From Candidatus Daviesbacteria bacterium (lineage in GTDB: Bacteria > Patescibacteriota > Microgenomatia > Daviesbacterales > UBA10151): a DNA stretch of 64,000 bases. Positions 24,207 through 35,927 of the stretch are shown in pieces; within the stretch, counting starts at the first letter, position 1, and every line of letters begins with the position of its first letter. Location of the stretch: the NCBI GenBank assembly GCA_028715175.1, contig JAQUSJ010000001.1:212550-276549 (forward strand), given 5' to 3'. The notes under the pieces are model-generated. The model had not been told where the DNA came from. It saw only the letters and a list, made by a program, of their open reading frames with translations, and searched no databases. Both the position numbers and the translations under genes were made by a program.

Positions 24207-24828
24207 CGGAATACCTAAAGCTGAATCTATAAATCAGATTGCTATTTTTGGCTCTTCTCATATTGATGAGAACAATGCATTATTTAAAGAAGCTTTTGAA
24301 GTCTGCGAAAAGTTGGCAGAAGCTGGATATGTCATAGTTAACGGAGGCGGACCGGGAGTGATGAGAGCGGCAAGCATGGGAGCTAAGGCTGCAGCATGTA
24401 AAGTGATTGGGGTGACTTTTCAGGCGGATCCGAAGATGCATTTTGAAGGAAGAGATCCTTTTAATAGGGTGGATATAGAGATCAAAACAAAAAATTACGT
24501 CGAAAGAACACTGACGCTTTTAAAGGAAGGACAAGTTTATGTAATTTTTAATGGGGGAACAGGGACTATTTCCGAATTTGGCATGGCTTGGGGTTTGGCT
24601 AAACTTTATTTTGGTCATCATAAACCACTAGTTCTGTATGGAAAATTTTGGGAAAATATTATCCAGGTATTTAAGGATAATATGATTCTGCGGCCGGAAG
24701 AGCTGGAAGTTTATAAAATTGTTGACAGCCCGGATGCAGTTCTACAAGCAATATTGGATTTTGAAAATGAATTAAAACAGGGGCAACACTTGTACGTTAA
24801 AGCGATAACCGACGATTTTAGTATATGA
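24199..24828 (+). CDS. LOG family protein (TIGR00730-type, cytokinin riboside 5'-monophosphate phosphoribohydrolase-like)
   Basis: GGGPGVM and NGGTGTISE motifs. Confidence 0.7.
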   Translation: MSNGIPKAESINQIAIFGSSHIDENNALFKEAFEVCEKLAEAGYVIVNGGGPGVMRAASMGAKAAACKVIGVTFQADPKMHFEGRDPFNRVDIEIKTKNYVERTLTLLKEGQVYVIFNGGTGTISEFGMAWGLAKLYFGHHKPLVLYGKFWENIIQVFKDNMILRPEELEVYKIVDSPDAVLQAILDFENELKQGQHLYVKAITDDFSI

Positions 24829-25643
24829 ATATTCATAAATTAGAGGAAACAGCCAATCTAATCCGCCAGGATATTATCAAAATGTTACTTGAGGCCGGAT
24901 CAGGGCATACGGCCGGGTCTTTGGGGATGACTGATATCTTTGCCGCACTCTATTTTCATATTTTAAACTATGATCCGGCAAAACCAGGCTGGAGCGGACG
25001 CGACAGATTAGTTTTGTCCAACGGCCACATCTGTCCAGTGTTATATGCCAGTATGGCTCGTGCGGGCTATTTTCCCGCCTCAGAACTTAAGACGCTGCGC
25101 AAGTTGGGCAGCAGATTACAAGGTCATCCCCATCGGACTTCTTTACCCGGGATTGAAACAACCTCCGGACCCTTAGGTTCTGGCTTGTCGCAGGCTGCGG
25201 GTTTGGCTTTAGCCGGACGCATGGATAAGGCCAGCTGGCGGGTGATTTGTTTAACATCAGACGGGGAGCATGATGAGGGCAATACCTGGGAAGCAGTGAT
25301 GTTCGCCGGTAAAAATAAGCTGCATAATTTAACAGCTGTAATCGATAGAAATAATATTCAAATTGACGGATTTACGGAAGATGTTATGCCGCTTGATAGT
25401 TTACGGGCAAAATATGAAGCTTTTAACTGGCATGTTATTGAGATTGACGGACATAATATGCAGGAAATTATTAATTCTTTTAACAAAGCTAAGACGATTT
25501 TGGAAAAACCGACGGTAATAATTGCCCATACGATTCCCGGGAAAGGGGTAAGTTTTATGGAAGGAAAATACGAATGGCATGGAAAATCGCCTAATAAAGA
25601 GGAGACTAAAAGGGCTTTGGCAGAGCTTAAAAATCATGATTAA
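24825..25643 (+). CDS. transketolase, N-terminal (TPP pyrophosphate-binding) subunit
   Basis: GHTAGSLG, DRLVLSNGH, TSDGEHDEGN motifs. Confidence 0.8.
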   Translation: MNIHKLEETANLIRQDIIKMLLEAGSGHTAGSLGMTDIFAALYFHILNYDPAKPGWSGRDRLVLSNGHICPVLYASMARAGYFPASELKTLRKLGSRLQGHPHRTSLPGIETTSGPLGSGLSQAAGLALAGRMDKASWRVICLTSDGEHDEGNTWEAVMFAGKNKLHNLTAVIDRNNIQIDGFTEDVMPLDSLRAKYEAFNWHVIEIDGHNMQEIINSFNKAKTILEKPTVIIAHTIPGKGVSFMEGKYEWHGKSPNKEETKRALAELKNHD

Positions 25644-26625
25644 TCCAAAAGCATATTTGAACCCGAAATTATTTGATCCCGGTGTTGAACAGGCGCCGAC
25701 CCGGAATGGTTATGGCGAAGGTTTAGTTTTAGCAGGGGAAGAAGATGAACAGGTAGTGGCGCTTTGCGCAGACTTAACCGAATCTACAAAGGCCAAAGCT
25801 TTTGCCGAAAAATTTCCGCAAAGGTTTATTGAGGTGGGGGTAGCTGAGCAAAATTTAGTGACAGTTGCAGCCGGTATGGCTCTTTTGGGAAAAATTCCTT
25901 TTGCTTCATCTTTTGCTACTTTTTCGCCGGGCAGGAACTGGGAGCAAATCAGAACAACTGTTTGTTATAACGACGTGCCGGTTAAAATTGTCGGTTCTCA
26001 TGTCGGTGTCAGTGTTGGGCCTGACGGAGCAACACATCAAGCTTTGGAAGATATAGCCATGATGCGGAGTTTGCCTAATATGATAGTAATTTCCCCGGCA
26101 GATGCAATTGAAGCTAAAAAAGCCACGCTGGCTATGGCCAAGCTGTCTAAGCCTTGTTATCTCAGGTTGTCCAGAGATAAAACACCTGTTGTAACTACGG
26201 AGCAAACCCCTTTTAAGATAGGGAAGGCAGAAATTTTCTATGAGGGAGATGACGTGGCAGTGATTGCCACCGGGCCGATGGTTTATAGGGCTTTGCTGGC
26301 TGCTAAAGAACTACAGTTGCGCAAAATATCTGTTCGAGTAATAAATTGCCACACTATCAAACCTTTAGATAAGCAGTTAGTGATAAATGCAGCTAAAGAT
26401 TGCGGAGCAATAGTTACAGCAGAAGAACATCAGGTTACAGGCGGTTTGGGAGGTGCGGTTGCGGAAGTCATTTCGCAAAATTTTCCCGTGCCTTTAAAAA
26501 TTATCGGCGTTGAAGACAGATTTGGAGAATCAGGTGAATCAGAGGAACTGTTTACAAAATTCGGCTTAACAAAGGAAGCAATTATGAAAGCTATCACTCA
26601 TATTTTACGAGTGAAAGAAAGGTGA
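25636..26625 (+). CDS. transketolase, C-terminal (pyrimidine-binding) subunit
   Basis: Start taken at the ATG overlapping the upstream stop (ATGA); transketolase pyrimidine and C-terminal domains. Confidence 0.8.
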   Translation: MINPKAYLNPKLFDPGVEQAPTRNGYGEGLVLAGEEDEQVVALCADLTESTKAKAFAEKFPQRFIEVGVAEQNLVTVAAGMALLGKIPFASSFATFSPGRNWEQIRTTVCYNDVPVKIVGSHVGVSVGPDGATHQALEDIAMMRSLPNMIVISPADAIEAKKATLAMAKLSKPCYLRLSRDKTPVVTTEQTPFKIGKAEIFYEGDDVAVIATGPMVYRALLAAKELQLRKISVRVINCHTIKPLDKQLVINAAKDCGAIVTAEEHQVTGGLGGAVAEVISQNFPVPLKIIGVEDRFGESGESEELFTKFGLTKEAIMKAITHILRVKER

Positions 26626-27686: not shown

Positions 27687-28499
27687 ATGAGCGATCTTTC
27701 TCCAATAAACAACATAATTAATCTTTCCGGAAAGGCAGCTGTGGTGACCGGAGGAGCTATGGGTATTGGTTTTGGAATAACTTACAGGCTGGCTGAGGCT
27801 GGGGCAAAAGTGATGATTGCCGATTTTAAGGAAGCAGAATCGCTGATAGCTGTCCGGAAATTAACGGAAAAAGGCTGGACGGCAAAATCTGTTAAAGTGG
27901 ATGTTTCAAATGAAGAAAATGTTAAAAAGATGGTTGCGGAAACCGTCAGTGCTTTTGGGAGTTTGGATATATTAGTTAATAATGCCGGAATTTACCCGAG
28001 TATGACTCTTTCGCAGATGAGTCTGGTTGATTTTGATAAGGTTTTGTCTGTGAACCTGAAAGGAGTTTTTCTATGCACAAAATATGTTTGCGAACAAATG
28101 ATAAAACAAGGAAAGGGAGGAAAGATAATTAACATTACTTCTATTGATGCGCTTCATCCTTCTTCCATAGGGCTAGCTCATTATGATGCTTCCAAACACG
28201 GAGTTTGGGGTTTTACCAAAAACGTGGCCCTGGAGTTGGCCTCCCACAAAATTTGGGTTAATGCTATTGCGCCGGGGGGGATTGCAACGCCGGGAGTACA
28301 GGTAATGCAAGGTAAAGCTCCTGTGCCGGCAGGCGTGGATATGTCTAAAATGCTGGAAGGTTTCCTGGCTAAAATTCCCATGCACAGGATGGGAGAGCCG
28401 GACGATATCGGCAAAGTTGCGCTGTTTTTGGCCTCAGACATGTCTTCCTATATGACCGGCAGCCAGATAGTGGTGGACGGCGGAGTTTTGCTTTCTTAA
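27687..28499 (+). CDS. SDR-family oxidoreductase
   Basis: TGGAMGIG Rossmann motif, NNAG, YDASK catalytic tetrad. Confidence 0.75.
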   Translation: MSDLSPINNIINLSGKAAVVTGGAMGIGFGITYRLAEAGAKVMIADFKEAESLIAVRKLTEKGWTAKSVKVDVSNEENVKKMVAETVSAFGSLDILVNNAGIYPSMTLSQMSLVDFDKVLSVNLKGVFLCTKYVCEQMIKQGKGGKIINITSIDALHPSSIGLAHYDASKHGVWGFTKNVALELASHKIWVNAIAPGGIATPGVQVMQGKAPVPAGVDMSKMLEGFLAKIPMHRMGEPDDIGKVALFLASDMSSYMTGSQIVVDGGVLLS

Positions 28500-28511: not shown

Positions 28512-28557
28512 TTGACATGATTCCCCTATCTAATATATGATATCCCCTATGGGGGGA
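28512..28557 (+). promoter_or_regulatory. csoR promoter (consensus TTGACA at 28512-28517) with putative CsoR operator: duplicated TCCCCTAT boxes and GC inverted repeat ATCCCC-TAT-GGGGGGA
   Basis: Read directly; CsoR-family operators are typically G/C-tract inverted repeats overlapping the promoter. Confidence 0.5.
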
Positions 28558-28585
28558 CTATGATCCTTCGACAGACTCAGGACCT

Positions 28586-28858
28586 ATGACATACAGACCT
28601 AAAGATACGGAGGAACGCATATTGCATAGACTAAAGATTGTCAAAGGGCATCTGCAAAAGATTATCCAGATGGTTGAAGACGATCATTATTGTATTGATG
28701 TAATTCACCAATCCCAGGCTGTTCAGAGAGCTTTGGAAGAAACAGATGGCGTGCTTTTGGAAAATCACCTTAAGACTTGTGTTGTTGATCACATTAAAAA
28801 AGGCGAAGTAGAATCTTCCATAAAAGAAATTATGAATGTTTTTAAGAAAAGGAAATAA
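28586..28858 (+). CDS. csoR: CsoR/RcnR-family metal-sensing transcriptional repressor (copper-type C-H-C ligand set)
   Basis: HYCIDVIHQ...C signature of the DUF156 four-helix bundle repressors. Confidence 0.75.
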   Translation: MTYRPKDTEERILHRLKIVKGHLQKIIQMVEDDHYCIDVIHQSQAVQRALEETDGVLLENHLKTCVVDHIKKGEVESSIKEIMNVFKKRK

Positions 28859-28860
28859 TT

Positions 28861-29361
28861 ATGGTTGACAAAAAGATAATTATCGGTTTAATAGTTTTCA
28901 CCCTTCTTCTATTGGGTGGAGGGATCTATGTTTTAAGTATTTCCTCTGCTCCTGTTAAGATTACATCTTCGCAGAATGCCAAGGCAGCGGTTGATCAAAA
29001 AACTTTTGATTGGGGTAATATTCCGATCAATGGAGGCAATGTCACCAAGACTTTTACTATCAAAAATACAGGTACAGATGTATTGAAATTGATCGGAGTA
29101 AAAACTTCCTGTACTTGTACCAAAGCCCAAGTAGTAATAGATGGTAAAACCAGTCCTTATTTTAGTATGCACGCCACTTCTTCTTGGGTTGGTGAAGTAG
29201 CACCGGGTAAAGAAGCCCAACTGACAGTTATTTTTGATCCTGCTTTTCATGGTCCTACAGGAGTTGGACCTACGGAAAGATTAATATCCGTAGAGACAAA
29301 TGATATCCAAAATCCAAAATTAGAGTTTTCTTTGAAAGGGGTAGTGGTAAAGGATAAATGA
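28861..29361 (+). CDS. DUF1573-like Ig-fold protein with N-terminal TM and CTC motif
   Basis: WGNI...G..V..TF.IKNTG...L.I..V..SCTC pattern typical of DUF1573; domain assignment from memory of the family, not a search. Confidence 0.5.
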   Translation: MVDKKIIIGLIVFTLLLLGGGIYVLSISSAPVKITSSQNAKAAVDQKTFDWGNIPINGGNVTKTFTIKNTGTDVLKLIGVKTSCTCTKAQVVIDGKTSPYFSMHATSSWVGEVAPGKEAQLTVIFDPAFHGPTGVGPTERLISVETNDIQNPKLEFSLKGVVVKDK

Positions 29362-30287
29362 AAAACTTTAAAAAAATTCTGATGAAAGCCGTACCTTTGT
29401 GGATGGTATTTATAATTGTTTTAAATTCCACTTTAGCTATGGGGTTACTGCAGTATTATTTGATGAAACAGGAACTAAATAGGAATATTGCTGCTCTTGC
29501 AAAAACCACTAAAAATCCGGAAGAATTAATTCAAATTCTAAAACAACAAGTTCTACCGCAAGATGGTTACAAAACTTCCTTAAAGTGGAAAGATTTGGGG
29601 AGAAAACTGGTTGAGGCAGGAGCTATCGACAAGGCCAAATTTGAAGCGAGTTTAGGTGCAGATGCCGATGGTAAGGCTGACATGAAATATATGGATGGTA
29701 GCTCAGAAGATAATGTCGTAATTAGCGAAAAGAATTCCCATTTTGTGGTTAATTTCTTTTGGGCGCTGGGTTTAGTAAATAAAAGCAAAGTTTTAGATGA
29801 AGGGCCAATGAAGGTGGGGGGTACTCCAACCGGAAATTTTGCCTCAACCGGAGGCTGGACACTGGGAGCAAAAGAACCGATGGAAATTTATTCCTCCGAG
29901 GAAATATTATCCCTTAATTCTTTCCAGAAAGATTTGGTGAAGAAAATAGCGGATAATGTGTTCCGGATTTGTTGTGGTAATGCCACCAGTTTTCCTGACT
30001 GCAATCATGGTATGGCGGCCTTAGGTTATATTGAATGGGCTGTTTATAATGGCCTTCCGGAAGATCAGATATACAAAGATCTTCTTGCCTTTAACTCATT
30101 TTGGTTTCCGCAAAATTATGTAGAAATGGCGGCATATTTTGACAAACAAGGTATTAAATGGAAAGATGTCGATCCTAAACTGGCGCTAAGTAAAGATTAT
30201 TCTTCAAATCAGGGTGCAGCCCGCATCAAGCAATCTATCCAAGGTGTGCCCGGACTGCAAATTCAAGGTGGAGGTTGCGGGGCATAG
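29358..30287 (+). CDS. hypothetical membrane-anchored extracytoplasmic protein with Cys/His cluster (CCGN...PDCNHG) and C-terminal GGGCGA
   Basis: 309-aa ORF, one N-terminal TM, translationally coupled to neighbours. Confidence 0.5.
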   Translation: MKNFKKILMKAVPLWMVFIIVLNSTLAMGLLQYYLMKQELNRNIAALAKTTKNPEELIQILKQQVLPQDGYKTSLKWKDLGRKLVEAGAIDKAKFEASLGADADGKADMKYMDGSSEDNVVISEKNSHFVVNFFWALGLVNKSKVLDEGPMKVGGTPTGNFASTGGWTLGAKEPMEIYSSEEILSLNSFQKDLVKKIADNVFRICCGNATSFPDCNHGMAALGYIEWAVYNGLPEDQIYKDLLAFNSFWFPQNYVEMAAYFDKQGIKWKDVDPKLALSKDYSSNQGAARIKQSIQGVPGLQIQGGGCGA

Positions 30288-31124
30288 ATGGAAAATGTAT
30301 TGTTTCAGACTTCCCTTATTGCCGCGTTTGTGGCAGGAATGGTAGCTTTGTTTGCCCCTTGTTGCATCACCTTTTTACTCCCTGCATATTTAGGTAGTGT
30401 GTTTAAGGAAAAAGAGAAAGTGGTGCTGATGACTCTTGTGTTTGGGGCAGGGATCTTTGTGGTACTTTTACCTGCGGTTTTGGGAGTGGCTTTTATTTCT
30501 CACTTGTTATTCCGATATCATGACGTTATTTATATTTTAGGAGGGGTTATCATGTTAACGGTAGCAGCAACTACCTTTTTGGGTATTAAATTACCCATGC
30601 CTGGTTTAAATAGGTTTAATGTCGGGGGAAGAACTGATGTGGTTTCAATTTTTACATTAGGGATTATTTCCGGTATTACCAGCGCTTGTTGCGCCCCGGT
30701 TTTGATCGGTATTATGACTTTGACTCTTTTTTCACCAAGCTTTTTCGGAGCCTTTCTGATAGGTGGGATGTATGTACTGGGGATGATAATCCCATTGCTT
30801 TTGATTGCGGTTTTCCTTTCAGATAAGATGCCGAAATTTATTCTTCTGAAAAAACCAATTTGGATATTAGATATTTTGGGCAAATCTTATGCGGTGATTA
30901 TAAGTAATGCAGTAGCAGCGATTGTATTTTTAATCACCGGACTATTGGCTTTGGGGTTAACGATGACAGGGAGGTTGTCTGCGGAAAATATGGATGTATT
31001 TACCAAGAATATTACAAATGTCTTAAGTAATGTGAATAATGTGATAGGAGGCAACATATTACTGAATGTTCTTTTTGTAATTGCTTTAATAGGGTTTGTT
31101 TATTGGGTATCAAAAAAGGTTTAA
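30288..31124 (+). CDS. CcdA/DsbD-like transmembrane thiol-disulfide electron transporter (DsbD_2 family)
   Basis: Conserved Cys in TM1 (FAPCCITFLLP) and TM4 (TSACCAPVLIG), 6-8 TM topology. Confidence 0.55.
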   Translation: MENVLFQTSLIAAFVAGMVALFAPCCITFLLPAYLGSVFKEKEKVVLMTLVFGAGIFVVLLPAVLGVAFISHLLFRYHDVIYILGGVIMLTVAATTFLGIKLPMPGLNRFNVGGRTDVVSIFTLGIISGITSACCAPVLIGIMTLTLFSPSFFGAFLIGGMYVLGMIIPLLLIAVFLSDKMPKFILLKKPIWILDILGKSYAVIISNAVAAIVFLITGLLALGLTMTGRLSAENMDVFTKNITNVLSNVNNVIGGNILLNVLFVIALIGFVYWVSKKV

Positions 31125-31359
31125 AACATATTAATAGGAGATGATATTAAATGACAGGTTATGGCATAGGTATTTTGGGAATAATTTTTTGGATAGTTTA
31201 TTTTATTTGACCTGTCTGTAAGCCGAATTATTATGCCTCAAGAGGTTACAGCGGATGGAGTACGGATGAACGCAAAGAAAATGGATTACGAAAAGCAAAG
31301 CATATCGGCTTTTAGGACGCTTACAGACGGAAATTTGGGGTGCGAAGAGGGGAGTCTAA

Positions 31360-31677
31360 GTGGCAGTTGCAGTTGAAGTATTGGGGATAAGTTTTAAGGC
31401 TGGATCGACAAATAGATGTATGGGATGTCCATTTGCCGGTCTTTGTACACCTTGCCGACCACAAGGCACTAAAACAGATTCGATAATTAAAAGACCTAGT
31501 TTTGAAGGAGAGGCTAAGGAACTAACAGTTGATATGATTGCACCTTTAGGCAGTATCCCTTTTAGGTTAGAAGGAAGTGGAGGGCATCCAATAAGAAGTG
31601 AAAAAACTTGCTCTAAATGCGGTAAAGAAGTTTCCACCTGCTTACACTCGAAGGAGAATTTAGTAGGTGATGAATGA
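31360..31677 (+). CDS. hypothetical Cys-rich protein (CMGCPFAGLCTPC ... CSKCGKEVSTC)
   Basis: GTG start with GGGGAG Shine-Dalgarno; same strand as the operon; a fully overlapping antisense ORF was rejected. Confidence 0.4.
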   Translation: MAVAVEVLGISFKAGSTNRCMGCPFAGLCTPCRPQGTKTDSIIKRPSFEGEAKELTVDMIAPLGSIPFRLEGSGGHPIRSEKTCSKCGKEVSTCLHSKENLVGDE

Positions 31678-31777
31678 GGAATTTTTTGGAACTTATTGCG
31701 GAGGGGGTTGTGAAAATTGTCCGTATATCGACGAGGAAGGCAATCGTCGAAAAATAAATAACTACTTAAAAAGATAA
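31670..31777 (+). CDS. small Cys-containing peptide MNEEFFGTYCGGGCENCPYIDEEGNRRKINNYLKR (35 aa)
   Basis: Hand-translated ATG...TAA ORF overlapping the upstream stop (ATGA-type coupling); below the ORF-track cutoff. Confidence 0.3.
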   Translation: MNEEFFGTYCGGGCENCPYIDEEGNRRKINNYLKR

Positions 31778-31798
31778 TTTTAAAAAGGGGGTGAGAAA

Positions 31799-32062
31799 AT
31801 GTTAAACGCAAAAGCTTTTGCCAATGCAGCTACAGCTGTAATGGCTGTGTATTATATAGTTTGTGCTTTGTTGTCATATTCTATGCCTGATTTAATTTTT
31901 GGTATTGCAAAGTCATGGATGCATTCAATAAGTATTGAATCACTTAAGGCGGCATCCGTGCCGGATATTGGATCGCTATTTTTGGGATTTGTGACTCTGG
32001 CAGGATTAACTTGGCTGACAACATATGGCACAATTTGGTTGTACAACCGTTGGGCAAGGTAA
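31799..32062 (+). CDS. hypothetical small membrane protein (3 TM)
   Basis: 87-aa hydrophobic ORF with GGGGGTGAG Shine-Dalgarno. Confidence 0.45.
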   Translation: MLNAKAFANAATAVMAVYYIVCALLSYSMPDLIFGIAKSWMHSISIESLKAASVPDIGSLFLGFVTLAGLTWLTTYGTIWLYNRWAR

Positions 32063-32170
32063 TGGGTTTTGATAGGATATTTAAATGGAATTTATTTTAA
32101 CTTTACTACTAGTATTAGCGTGTCCTTTAATGATGTTATTTATGCACAGGGGAGGTGGACACAAACACAG

Positions 32171-32530
32171 ATGAGTACAGATAAGATTATAGTCACAGTA
32201 GCTGGACTTGCAGGGATAATTTTTATCTATTGGTTTTTCCTGATGAAGAAGGAGAAAGAGGTTAGTGTTGCCGGAGAAGTAGATATCACCGTTTCTGGCG
32301 GATATTCGCCGGAAGTTATTTCTATTCCTTTAGGGAAACCTACAAAAATAAATTTTATCAGAACTGACCCGACTGAGTGTTTATCCGAAGTGGTATTGCC
32401 GGATTTTAAAATTAAAAAACAACTGCCATTAAATCAAAAAGTAACTGTAGAAATAACTCCGAAAGAAAAAGGAGAGTTTGGTTATGCTTGTGGTATGAAC
32501 ATGTATCACGGAAAGATAATAGTCAAATGA
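32171..32530 (+). CDS. cupredoxin-like domain protein, membrane-anchored (C-x-M-x-M-x-H-G motif: [14 protein letters not shown])
   Basis: Start set at the ATG with GGGAGGTGGA Shine-Dalgarno; N-terminal TM; same domain as the C-terminus of the ORF at 34728. Confidence 0.55.
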
Positions 32531-34728
32531 CAGAAGTTAAAAAAACTTTTCCGATCAAAGGAATGCATTGCGCTTCTTGTGTGCGGGTAATTGAGAAATC
32601 GCTGTCAGAGCTACAGGGAGTTTCCAGTGCAGCAGTCAATCTGGTAACAGAAAAAGCGAGTATCGTTTATGATCCGAGTCGAGCGAGCGACCAGGATTTG
32701 GCATCGGCTGTTGCAAACGTAGGATATAAAGCGGTTTTAGAGCAGAAGCTTATGAACAAAGATGAACAAAAACAGGAAAAGCAAAAAGAGCTTAAAAGTC
32801 TAAGGAACAAGGTGATGTTCTCTTTGATTTTAGGTACCTTTATTGTCTGGGGATCTTTTCCGGGACTGATGGAATTTGCGCCCGTGTTTTTACGAAATAA
32901 TTTGGTACAGTTTCTTTTGGCTATCCCTGTACAATTTTGGGCAGGACTGACATTTTATAGGGCGGCAATTCCGGCTATAAAGCATCGTACAGCCAATATG
33001 GATACTTTAGTTGCACTGGGTACCTCTGTTGCTTTTTCCTACTCCGCATTTGTGACAGCGTTCCCTCAAGTTATGCAAAGTATCGGGATCGAACCGGCAA
33101 CTTATTTTGATGTTTCAACGATTATTATTGGCTTGATACTCCTAGGACGCTACTTTGAAGCCAAAGCCAAGGCAGGCACGTCTGAAGCGATAAAGCGGTT
33201 GATCGGATTGCAGGCAAAAACGGCCAGGGTAGTAAAGAACGGTCAGGAAGTTGATATCCCAATTTCACAAGTTTCAGTTGGTATGGTTATCAGGGTTAGG
33301 CCGGGAGAAAAGATTCCGGTTGACGGGAAAATTCTGGAAGGAGGGAGTTCTATTGACGAGTCAATGGTAACAGGTGAAAGTATGCCTGTTGACAGAACAA
33401 AAGGAGACAGCGTGGTAGGGGCAACAATCAATAAAACCGGTACGTTTACTTTTAAAGCCACTAAAATCGGCAAAGATACACTGTTGTCGCAAATTATCAA
33501 ACTGGTGGAAGAAGCCCAAAGCTCTAAAGCTCCAATACAGCGGTTGTCAGATTTAATTTCCTCGTATTTTGTGCCGGCGGTAATAATGCTGGCAATTTTA
33601 ACTTTTGTAATCTGGTATATCTTCGGGCCTGTCCCGAGTTTTCTTTTTGCCATGTTAAATATGGTGGCGGTTTTGATTATTGCCTGTCCTTGCGCCATGG
33701 GGCTGGCTACTCCTACAGCTATAATGGTGGGGACAGGATTGGGGGCGAGTAAAGGAATCCTAATTAAAGACGCATCCAGTTTAGAAACTGCCCATAAAAT
33801 TGATACGGTAATTTTTGACAAAACCGGAACCCTTACTTACGGGAAACCGACTGTAACGGATATCGTGGGTGATGTTTTACAGCTGGCTGCATCTTTAGAA
33901 AAAGGATCAGAACATTCTCTAGCAGAGGCAATCGTCAGAAAAGGGGAAGAAAAAAAGGTCAGGTTTTTGAAAGTAACCGGGTTTAAGGCGATCCCCGGGT
34001 ATGGGGTGAAAGGCAAAGTGGAGGGGAAACTGGTGGTTTTTGGCAACAGGAGGTTAATGGAAAAAGAGAATATTACGTTTGCAAGGCTAGACCTTGCAAA
34101 GCTGGAGGAGGAGGGAAAGACTGTAATGATGTTGGGAGTAAACTCTAAATTTAGAGGTTTAATTGCGGTGGCAGATACTTTAAAAGATACTGCAAAAGAC
34201 GCTGTCGGGAAATTGCGAAAACTGGGCATAGAAGTGATTATGATCACAGGAGACAACCAAAGAACGGCACATGCTATTGCATCTAAAGCGGGTATAAAAA
34301 CTGTGTTGGCAGAAGTGTTGCCTGATGAAAAAGAAAAAGAAGTCAAAAGACTGCAAGCTGAAGGGAAAAAAGTGGCTTTTGTGGGAGATGGGATCAATGA
34401 CGCCCCGGCCTTGGCACAAGCGGATGTGGGAATTGCTATGGGAGCTGGGACTGATGTGGCTATAGAATCAAGCAATATTACTCTGGTTAATAAGGATTTG
34501 CGTTCAATAGCCACAGCCATCAATTTATCAAAAAAGACTATGAGGACTATCAAGCTTAATCTTTTTTGGGCTTTTGGTTATAATGTAATTTTAATCCCGG
34601 TAGCCATGGGAGTTTTGTATCCTTTTTTCCATATCTTATTGAATCCGATTTTTGCTTCGGCAGCGATGGCTTTAAGTTCAATATCGGTTGTGAGTAATTC
34701 GCTATTTTTGAAAAAGGCGAAAATCTGA
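32527..34728 (+). CDS. copA: copper-translocating P1B-type ATPase
   Basis: N-terminal HMA (GMHCASC), CPC in TM6, [17 protein letters not shown]; start at MTEVKK (ATGA overlap with the upstream gene). Confidence 0.9.
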
Positions 34729-35708
34729 TGGATTTAATAACGATATTTTTTATTGGTTTAACAGCCGGAGGGTTAGGGTGTGTGGCAGTCCAGGGAGGGC
34801 TTTTAGCCTCGGCTGTTACTGCCAGAAAAGAACTGGACCAAAAAGATAAAAATGATATTATCCCGACTTTATCGTTTCTTTCGGCAAAACTTGTAAGTCA
34901 CGCTATTTTAGGGGGAGCTTTGGGGCTTTTTGGGGCTGCTTTGTCTATCTCCAATAATGTTAGGACTACTGTGCAAATTATTGCCGGCATTTATATGATT
35001 ATAGTTGCCTTAGATTTATTGAATGTTCACCCAATTTTCCGCTATTTTATTATCCAGCCTCCAAGGTTTTTAACCAAAATGGTGAGAAATAGATCAAGAA
35101 GCGCTGATATTTTTGCACCGGCCATTTTAGGGACAATGACAATTTTTATCCCATGCGGGACGACTTTGGCAATGGAGGCTTTAGCTATTTCTTCAGGATC
35201 TGCTGTAAAAGGCTCATTGATTTTAATTGCTTTTGTATTGGGTATCTCCCCGATCTTTTTTGGTTTAGGTTATATTACTGCCAAATTAAGCGATAATTTC
35301 AGGCAGACTTTTTTTAAAATCGCCGCTTTTATCATTATTTTTGTAGGACTTGCCACGATCAATAATACTTTGGGGGCGGCAGGATTTCCAATAATAACCA
35401 TTGATTTAGGCGGTAGAGAGCTCCAAACGAGGAATATTGCAGCCAGCCAGGAATACCAGATCCAAATTTCAGGCAGTGGTTATAGCCCGAATTATTTAAA
35501 AGTTAAAAAAGGATTGCCTGTTAAAATTACTCTTATTTCAAACAATACTTATGGTTGTGCTTTGGCTTTTAGGATTCCTTCTTTGGGGATTTCCAAAAAT
35601 TTAAAACCAACAGATTCCCAAACTTTTGAATTTACACCAACTGAAATTGGGCAAATAACGTTTAGCTGTTCAATGGGCATGTACCGCGGAATTATTGAGG
35701 TGATTTAG
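34728..35708 (+). CDS. membrane permease-like domain (~200 aa, TauE/SafE-like, weak) fused to C-terminal cupredoxin-like domain (FSCSMGMYRGIIEV)
   Basis: 6-7 predicted TMs followed by a domain paralogous to 32171..32530. Confidence 0.5.
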   Translation: MDLITIFFIGLTAGGLGCVAVQGGLLASAVTARKELDQKDKNDIIPTLSFLSAKLVSHAILGGALGLFGAALSISNNVRTTVQIIAGIYMIIVALDLLNVHPIFRYFIIQPPRFLTKMVRNRSRSADIFAPAILGTMTIFIPCGTTLAMEALAISSGSAVKGSLILIAFVLGISPIFFGLGYITAKLSDNFRQTFFKIAAFIIIFVGLATINNTLGAAGFPIITIDLGGRELQTRNIAASQEYQIQISGSGYSPNYLKVKKGLPVKITLISNNTYGCALAFRIPSLGISKNLKPTDSQTFEFTPTEIGQITFSCSMGMYRGIIEVI

Positions 35709-35927
35709 ATGACTAAAAAGAAATTTAAAATAATAGGCATGCATTGTACATCTTGTGCCATGACCATTGATATGGATTTAGAGGATTTGCCTGGGGTAAA
35801 AATGGCTCAGACAAACTACGCTCGCCAAACCACTGAAGTAGAATTTGATCCTAAAAGAGCGACAGATAGTTTAATTCTGGAAACTATTAAAAAATCAGGA
35901 TATACTGCAGTTCCCCTTGAAACTTAA
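35709..35927 (+). CDS. copZ: copper chaperone, heavy-metal-associated domain
   Basis: GMHCTSC MxCxxC motif, 72 aa. Confidence 0.8.
   Translation: MTKKKFKIIGMHCTSCAMTIDMDLEDLPGVKMAQTNYARQTTEVEFDPKRATDSLILETIKKSGYTAVPLET

Follow-up and report, generated by a model that had tools for sequence, protein, structure and literature searches.

Why should a copper-export locus carry, between the gene of its repressor and that of its Cu(I) ATPase, several further genes of extracytoplasmic and membrane proteins with conserved cysteines? The question is raised by positions 28512-35927 of a 64,000-nucleotide stretch of contig JAQUSJ010000001.1 of a Candidatus Daviesbacteria bacterium, one of the Candidate Phyla Radiation (CPR). 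The whole stretch is called the window below, and coordinates refer to it unless a related locus is named. The locus has the order csoR, DUF1573, X309, M278, DUF5676, CupA-like gene, copA, DsbD_2-cupredoxin fusion and copZ, where X309 and M278 are our names for proteins of 309 and 278 amino acids (aa). Our answer, to which we give about an even chance of being right, is that this is a CsoR-repressed copper-stress operon in which extracytoplasmic copper-handling proteins with Cys, His and Met sites would be kept reduced by a CcdA-type conduit during copper stress. X309 stands at the centre of this putative thiol module. We found no description of the DUF1573-X309-M278 triplet, and least of all of X309, in the libraries and the literature that we searched. 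An earlier note on the same DNA had proposed a copper-handling or disulfide-repair system of similar composition. The linkage of DUF1573, X309 and the CcdA-like gene to csoR and copA, on which it was built, stands, whereas the places it gave to two small Cys-bearing open reading frames (ORFs) of 105 and 35 aa, to a cupredoxin of unknown status and to a VKOR-DsbA pair do not.

Linkage of the triplet to copper genes

Linkage was counted with profile hidden Markov models (HMMs) in 53 species-level loci with enough flanking sequence, a gene being taken as linked if it lay within 6 kb of X309. By this measure copA accompanied X309 in 43 of the 53 loci, DUF1573 in 42, M278 in 40 and csoR in 37; any copper gene was found in 48 and the full triplet in 34. 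The earlier note had asked if the uncharacterised genes were conserved with copA in relatives, and for DUF1573, X309 and M278 these counts, drawn from many CPR lineages, show that they are. A tblastn search gave the same picture as the profile HMMs. Each triplet protein carries invariant Cys, His or Met residues, and invariant residues of the soft-metal or redox kind occur in all components of the operon. The order of the three genes differs among loci (with D, X and M standing for DUF1573, X309 and M278, we observed D-X-M, D-M-X, X-D-M and M-X), and hence the linkage goes beyond inherited synteny.

The varying order also bears on the simplest alternative, namely that the triplet forms no functional unit and owes its place beside copA to common descent or to transfer as a mobile cassette. 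Many of the loci do come from related CPR lineages, and the identities of 65-89% among the top X309 matches could mean a recent transfer of such a cassette. However, neither the shuffling of gene order nor domain fusions nor the transfer to Anaerolineae and to Micrarchaeota has broken the linkage, and stop/start overlaps tie DUF1573-X309-M278 to csoR. Furthermore, chance proximity to a single-copy copA in a genome of about 1 Mb would, by rough inference, amount to about 1%, as against the 81% observed. We give this alternative hardly any credence.

X309, a large family without a name

X309 (29358-30287, plus strand) is a predicted membrane-anchored extracytoplasmic protein of an undescribed family and consists of an N-terminal signal anchor and a domain of about 250 aa. 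It is identical to PHE48_01460, a protein of a Candidatus Daviesbacteria metagenome-assembled genome, which places the window in a CPR/Patescibacteria genome. W135, R203, C205, C206, D214, C215, H217 and G218 are invariant and M219 nearly so, which gives the family its signature, CC...DCNH, followed by a C-terminal GGxCG tail that carries C307. The description of this protein in the earlier note, extracytoplasmic with a CC/C/H cluster, fits the sequence: the signal anchor is present and C205, C206, C215 and H217 are invariant, the clustering being that in sequence. In nearly all of 87 X309 homologues the tail Cys lies three residues from the C-terminus and is preceded by Gly, the tail reading GG[GS]CG[AV].

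The AlphaFold2 model of X309 is mostly helical and has a predicted local distance difference test score (pLDDT) of 91.6, with lower values in the tail than in the core. A Foldseek comparison of X309 with PDB folds gave no match (best E-value 1.0, TM-score about 0.2), and no match was obtained against Pfam-A, NCBIfam and PDB sequences either, profile searches included. The family nevertheless comprises 3222 homologues at E<=1e-3, which form 493 clusters at 50% identity, and a genome scan confirmed it in at least 585 species-representative genomes, most of them Patescibacteria, with some Anaerolineae/Chloroflexi and Micrarchaeota. Our literature search found no paper on such a locus in CPR bacteria. 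X309 thus represents a large family with a confident predicted structure and an invariant Cys/His motif that has neither a family name nor a solved relative, and the link to copper provides a starting hypothesis for it.

In 10 loci X309 is fused to an N-terminal extracytoplasmic rhodanese, and eight of these have no M278 nearby. The fusions are encoded by ORFs of 392-411 aa (L035, L037, L039, L040, L056, L057, L076, L078, L080 and L082) with the active-site loop CKTGRM. This raises the possibility that X309 is a sulfur carrier, whose GGxCG Cys would bear a persulfide or sulfane sulfur loaded by rhodanese and be reset via the CcdA-like conduit, for example in order to trap Cu(I) as copper-sulfur species. 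The position of the tail Cys, the lower pLDDT of the tail and the occurrence of rhodanese fused to or beside X309 all fit such a carrier, and the tail resembles the GGCGG arm of SoxY. SoxV, a CcdA orthologue, is described in a reference cited in PMC10451225 as reducing a periplasmic thioredoxin of the Sox pathway. On the other hand, X309 is mostly helical as opposed to the Ig-like fold of SoxY, no sox, sqr or persulfide dioxygenase genes are found nearby, and CsoR keeps the His of its Cu(I) site. We consider a sulfur carrier to be very unlikely.

M278 and the alternative partners of X309

The protein encoded next to X309, M278 (30288-31124, plus strand), appears to be a divergent CcdA-family membrane protein, as the earlier note had suggested in calling it a CcdA/DsbD-like transporter. 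Its family profile matches Thermus CcdA (PDB 5VKV) with an E-value of 1.1e-5 over residues 8-179, and C25 and C134, which stand in PC...P and C..P motifs, align with both redox Cys of CcdA. The window protein alone misses PF02683, some of its homologues match this family, and NCBI records give M278 the name CcdA. Each of the aligned redox Cys is followed by an additional invariant Cys (C26 and C135).

It is these doubled cysteines that make a different function conceivable. In a Mer-like soft-metal relay, M278 would transport Cu(I) (or Ag/Hg) via its vicinal Cys, and DUF1573 and X309 would be metal donors and acceptors in the manner of MerP/MerT. The pairs C25-C26 and C134-C135 are invariant and lie inside transmembrane (TM) segments, H78 is invariant as well, DUF1573, X309 and DUF5676 carry Cys/His/Met sets typical of Cu(I) ligands, and the superfamily of the DsbD/CcdA fold includes many metal-ion transporters. 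Yet both canonical CcdA redox Cys align exactly in M278, an ATP-driven exporter, CopA, is already encoded, and import under a copper-induced promoter would harm the cell. Moreover, where M278 is missing, its place is taken by rhodanese, a CxxC membrane domain or ferric-reductase-like modules and not by transporters. On these grounds a Mer-like relay is unlikely.

The replacements of M278 deserve a closer description. Besides the rhodanese fusions, X309 is fused in other lineages to a multi-TM domain with the motif GCP[VA]CG; Pfam and NCBIfam scans of the N-terminal CxxC membrane domain of the long X309 forms gave nothing credible. In one locus with a long X309 (L090, 4488-10948), genes of a P-type ATPase, a cupredoxin and a rhodanese lie nearby, together with those of a ferric-reductase-like (Ferric_reduct) membrane protein and its NAD-binding partner. 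In another (L091, 410-8382), X309 is accompanied by a CcmH-DUF1573 fusion, further DUF1573 genes, PCYCGC, COX2-like and Fer4_5 proteins and a rhodanese. Judged by family assignment, every alternative partner of X309 is a thiol, sulfur or electron-transfer module, and it is chiefly for this reason that we read M278 as an electron conduit rather than as a transporter.

The same two loci speak for copper delivery, in which X309 and DUF1573 would act as extracytoplasmic chaperones or insertases for cupredoxin or CuA-type proteins, comparable to Sco1/PCuAC with TlpA/CcdA as the reductant. The long X309 of L091 and L090 adjoins COX2-like or cupredoxin genes, and the Fer4_5 protein near X309 in L091 is presumably comparable to the cupric reductase CcoG. 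A Cys-based copper chaperone that depends on a reductant is the known Sco/TlpA pattern. However, the window and most CPR loci place these genes in a CsoR-repressed operon with copA, copZ and cupA that would be induced by copper excess, and the ORF list of the window locus contains no respiratory cuproenzyme gene. We regard delivery as quite unlikely.

The DUF1573 protein

The third member of the triplet (28861-29361, plus strand) is a signal-anchored Ig-like protein that matches PF07610 with an E-value of 1e-13 (51.5 bits, cut-off 26.1). It also matches NCBIfam NF041425, the OS_HP2 (seleno)protein family, with an E-value of 1.6e-12, but this match falls below the curated cut-off of the model. 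Among 76 homologues it keeps S83-C84-x-C86-T87, M103 and H130, and C84-x-C86 is conserved at 99-100%, so that a DUF1573-like Ig-fold protein with a CTC motif, as had been noted before, is indeed present. Selenoprotein members with the motif UGC are listed for the DUF1573/OS_HP2 family (PMC9312934, PMC13188914). Provided that UGC occupies the CxC position, as we assume, these members point to a redox or metal role of the motif. When the DUF1573 profile was compared with the PDB, only weak Ig-like matches were returned, and neither DsbD-alpha nor a copper chaperone was among them. The literature search yielded no paper linking DUF1573 with copper.

Operon organization and regulation

All ORFs of the gene list in the earlier note are present on the plus strand in the ORF list of the window, and its description of a single plus-strand array with many coupled genes is correct. 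The genes appear to form two translationally coupled blocks behind a single strong predicted promoter with a conserved CsoR box. In the first block, csoR-DUF1573-X309-M278, csoR and DUF1573 are separated by a 2-nt gap, DUF1573 and X309 are joined by an ATGA overlap, and the X309 stop codon abuts the M278 ATG. The second block, CupA-like-copA-fusion-copZ, is held together by an ATGA overlap between the CupA-like gene and copA, a TGATG overlap between copA and the fusion, and a fusion stop codon that abuts the copZ ATG. M278 is separated from DUF5676 by a 675-bp stretch (31124-31799), which is described further below.

The promoter-like site, TTGACA-18-TATGAT (28512-28541, plus strand), is sigma-70-like with 11 of 12 matches and is the best such site in the 11.5 kb between 26000 and 37500. 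Directly after its -10 element, and abutting it, lies the GC inverted repeat ATCCCCTATGGGGGGACT (28542-28559, plus strand), a predicted CsoR operator that can be written as ATCCCC-TAT-GGGGGGACT. The 64-kb window contains two sites of the pattern C4-N2-6-G4 as compared with 0.6 expected from shuffled sequences, and 29 of 59 related loci share the operator box ahead of csoR.

The repressor gene csoR (28586-28858, plus strand) encodes a Cu(I)-sensing protein of family PF02583 (Trns_repr_metal; E-value 1.2e-23). Together with the box abutting the -10 element, this match agrees with the CsoR-type repressor and GC inverted-repeat operator of the earlier note. Y35, C36, H61, C65 and E81 are all present and are conserved at 95, 98, 98, 81 and 95%, respectively, in 59 homologues; we take these to be the same residue numbers as in the Cu(I) site and second shell of Mycobacterium tuberculosis CsoR. 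The x-C-H-C set of Cu(I) ligands (Cys36, His61, Cys65) and the second-shell Tyr35 and Glu81 are hence all kept. CstR-type relatives of CsoR, which sense persulfides, are not known to have that His. A role of this CsoR as a persulfide sensor was considered and rejected, since the His of the Cu(I) site is retained.

The export genes

Profile searches, which the earlier note had proposed for the unknown ORFs, placed CsoR, DUF1573, DUF5676, the cupredoxin, the fusion, CopA and CopZ in families and left X309 without a match. Pfam and NCBIfam together assign every named family of the locus; they assign none to X309, and none to M278 when it is searched alone. The export layer proper (CsoR, CupA, CopA and CopZ) is ordinary.

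The CupA-like gene (32171-32530, plus strand) lies directly before copA and encodes, by homology, a membrane-anchored Cu(I) chaperone (Cupredoxin_1, E-value 8e-24). The annotated ORF of 153 aa starts too early; the true start is at 32171, and the homologues are 119 aa long. The protein matches CupA of Streptococcus pneumoniae (PDB 2MRY/4F2E) with an E-value of 3.2e-25 over 86 residues and has a hydrophobic N-terminus, and its C70, C107, M109 and M111, invariant in 64 homologues, align with the copper ligands of CupA (C...CxMxM). The characterized CupA is anchored in the membrane and, as a Cu(I) chaperone, delivers copper to CopA at the cytoplasmic side (PMC7558416). As a homologue of a protein that works at the cytoplasmic face, this stand-alone cupredoxin is a known protein and probably not an extracytoplasmic one. 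The earlier note was right about the cupredoxin and its membrane anchor, and the status of an unknown, which it had given to this protein, is removed by the homology to CupA. The observation extends the range of CupA from a few streptococci, as described in the review PMC7558416, to CPR bacteria and adds a fusion to DsbD_2.

CopA (32527-34728, plus strand) is a P1B-type (P1B-1) Cu(I) ATPase with the Pfam domains E1-E2_ATPase and Hydrolase and an N-terminal HMA domain, and its translation shows the CPC, YN and MALSS (MxxSS) motifs. CopZ (35709-35927, plus strand) is an HMA copper chaperone (PF00403, E-value 6e-13) with the motif MHCxxC; its matches to the NCBIfam CopZ models, with E-values of 1e-13 and 7e-12, are both below the curated cut-offs. 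For both genes the Pfam domains support the names given to them earlier.

Between copA and copZ lies the gene of a 326-aa fusion (34728-35708, plus strand), in which a DsbD_2 domain of six TM segments (E-value 1.6e-28) is followed by a C-terminal Cupredoxin_1 domain; the permease-cupredoxin fusion described before was thus identified correctly. The C-terminal domain matches CupA with an E-value of 7e-9. C18 and C143 are conserved in DsbD_2, and C277, C314, M316 and M318 in the CupA-like domain. The counts of Lys and Arg residues in the loops indicate that these are placed as in DsbD, with both termini outside, and hence the CupA-like domain of the fusion probably faces outward. This architecture recurs in 18 of the 53 well-flanked loci, and we found no description of a fusion of a six-TM DsbD_2 domain with a CupA-like domain.

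The gene upstream of the second block (31799-32062, plus strand) had been described as that of a small 3-TM protein. Its 87-aa product belongs instead to the 2-TM DUF5676 family (PF18926, E-value 8e-16). C22 and H42 are invariant, and the gene is present in 21 of the 53 loci. In a related Daviesbacteria locus (L001, 10283-11136), DUF5676 is followed by genes of a 141-aa TM protein with an ACCAHH motif and of a 143-aa secreted protein, for both of which Pfam and NCBIfam scans gave nothing credible. In a Levybacteria locus, the CupA-like gene and copA are separated by an inserted gene of the bAvd/23S_rRNA_IVP type (L003, 10714-11076).

Proposed mechanism

The proposed system would work in two layers. 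In the first, supported by strong homology, CsoR would sense Cu(I) and leave the operator abutting the -10 element, whereupon CopZ and the membrane-anchored CupA-like chaperone would supply the P1B-ATPase CopA for export of Cu(I) from the cytoplasm. In the second, a cell-surface thiol module, M278 and the DsbD_2 domain would move reducing equivalents from the cytoplasm outward, so that the Cys sites of DUF1573, X309 and the DsbD_2-fused CupA-like domain, all of them membrane-tethered, stay reduced. The reduced surface proteins could then bind or pass on the exported Cu(I), or undo copper-catalysed disulfides. The tail Cys of X309 might serve, more speculatively, as a swinging arm by which Cu(I) or electrons reach the CC/C/H pocket.

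A number of observations weigh against this reading. The vicinal CC pairs of M278 are atypical for CcdA and typical of soft-metal transporters such as MerT, and the AlphaFold2 model of M278, calculated from a shallow alignment, has a pLDDT of 51.8, which is too poor for a fold search. A gene of a thioredoxin-fold protein, the usual acceptor of CcdA, is absent from the operon according to the ORF list and the Pfam scan; a DsbA gene is found upstream, outside the operon. In the Anaerolineae loci, where X309 also lies beside copper genes, M278 is absent and DUF1573 mostly so, and the COX2-like neighbours in L091 suggest copper delivery rather than detoxification. Finally, the genome scan contributed 80 loci, the best by score of at least 585, and this set leans to relatives of the present genome.

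A bolder form of the two-layer proposal is that X309 founds a new fold and family and makes up, together with DUF1573 and the double-CC CcdA, a reductant-driven surface machine. Its C-terminal Cys arm would capture Cu(I) leaving CopA and neutralize it by sequestration, by hand-off or, with the help of rhodanese, as copper-sulfur species. We regard this form as tentative and rather doubtful. If it is true, envelope copper defence, represented otherwise by multicopper oxidases and by binders of the Cus/CopL type, would gain a third kind, with a wide distribution among CPR bacteria, some Chloroflexi and DPANN archaea. CPR cells probably have a single membrane, and if the reductant-driven model is true, the link between copper stress and envelope thiol redox known from Scs and DsbC/DsbD would widen to such cells. 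CPR bacteria cannot be cultivated on their own, and next to nothing is known of the physiology of their envelope; the locus offers a concrete and testable stress system of small proteins, which lend themselves to expression in other hosts.

Comparison with known systems

In the Sox pathway, the final client carries a C-terminal Gly-Cys arm. M278 is homologous to the conduits of the CcdA pathways (CcdA to ResA/StoA/Etrx; SoxV to SoxW/SoxS to SoxY) and keeps both redox Cys. Unlike in these pathways, there is no gene of a thioredoxin-like acceptor here, each active Cys is doubled, and M278 bears a C-terminal extension of about 100 aa. X309 is helical and unrelated to SoxY, and Pfam and NCBIfam return no Sox family match for it; only the GGxCG tail is alike.

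Genes of copper exporters are also accompanied by those of accessory proteins at the surface or in the periplasm in the case of CopL, encoded in copBL of Staphylococcus aureus, and of CopG. The latter has a CxCC tetranuclear copper cluster and a Cys-rich motif with vicinal Cys, His and Met. X309 has no sequence or family relationship to either of them, and its own copper binding is putative.

The nearest functional parallel is the Scs system (ScsB/C/D) of Salmonella, Caulobacter and Proteus, and the likeness is functional only. Scs is induced by copper, its membrane electron transporter belongs to the DsbD superfamily and supplies extracytoplasmic Cys proteins, which protect the envelope, and ScsC also binds Cu(I) (PMC10907172, PMC3322552, PMC8900818). 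In the present locus, by contrast, the putative acceptors are the Ig-like DUF1573 and the unclassified X309 and not thioredoxin-fold proteins, the regulator is CsoR, and the part of ScsB, which has periplasmic domains, would fall to a short CcdA-type protein whose redox Cys are doubled to vicinal CC pairs. Neither these domains nor the thioredoxin-fold partners ScsC and ScsD were detected in the operon proteins by Pfam and NCBIfam. As the defining acceptor proteins of Scs and of the CcdA pathways are absent, the locus is a member of neither.

The export layer can be compared with CopY-CupA-CopA of S. pneumoniae (PDB 4F2E, 4F2F; PMC7558416). The 119-aa homologue has the same C...CxMxM site and an N-terminal anchor. 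CopA, however, has an HMA rather than a cupredoxin domain at its N-terminus, CopZ is additional, the repressor is CsoR and not CopY, and a second CupA-like domain, predicted to face outward, is fused to DsbD_2.

The stretch between M278 and DUF5676 and the flanking genes

A conserved Met/Gly-rich peptide of 42-45 aa with a single TM segment (MMGxWGY...DLILLGxWLWKQIQKK) is encoded intact in at least 20 loci, where its gene is flanked by the CcdA-like gene on one side and by DUF5676 or cupA on the other; examples from close relatives are 9805-9942 in L086, 2988-3122 in L087 and 9856-9984 in L001. The peptide is without a match in Pfam and NCBIfam and may be a small membrane peptide of copper loci. 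DNA alignment to these three loci reveals a remnant of the gene in the window, a frame-shifted pseudogene of 19 codons at 31151-31210 (plus strand). It is truncated by a genome-specific insertion of about 590 bp (approximate bounds 31211-31785, plus strand), for which BLAST found no counterpart in 87 related loci beyond the peptide remnant. BLAST against the window itself found no repeat, so that the insertion is no mobile element with further copies in the window. A permissive Rfam scan of 31050-31900 gave nothing credible, which argues against a known RNA; a gathering-threshold scan of the window returned two tRNAs only. The insertion carries a promoter-like site at 31207-31234.

Both of the small Cys-bearing ORFs that the earlier note had counted as parts of the locus lie inside the insertion on the plus strand, one of 105 aa (31360-31677) and one of 35 or 36 aa with a CGGGCxxC motif (31667/31670-31777). 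No match to them was found in the 87 loci. The 105-aa ORF has three rare homologues with 40-46% identity, which share its N-terminus and CxxC motifs and adjoin mevalonate-pathway genes and not copper genes; no homologue of the 35-aa ORF was found. Because they are not conserved across the loci, we rejected both ORFs as components of the system.

The VKOR-DsbA pair, whose proteins match Pfam VKOR and DSBA, does lie upstream of the locus, but not immediately so, as had been stated. An SDR gene (27687-28499) intervenes, and the operon promoter lies downstream of it. Since the SDR gene and the promoter separate the two, the pair is placed outside the operon and was rejected as a part of it. The synteny with VKOR-DsbA is seen in 12 of 85 loci, mostly of Daviesbacteria. 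Judged by eye from the translations, a pair of successive ORFs further upstream (24825-26625), of 272 and 348 aa and with a slight overlap, resembles a transketolase split into an N-terminal and a C-terminal half.

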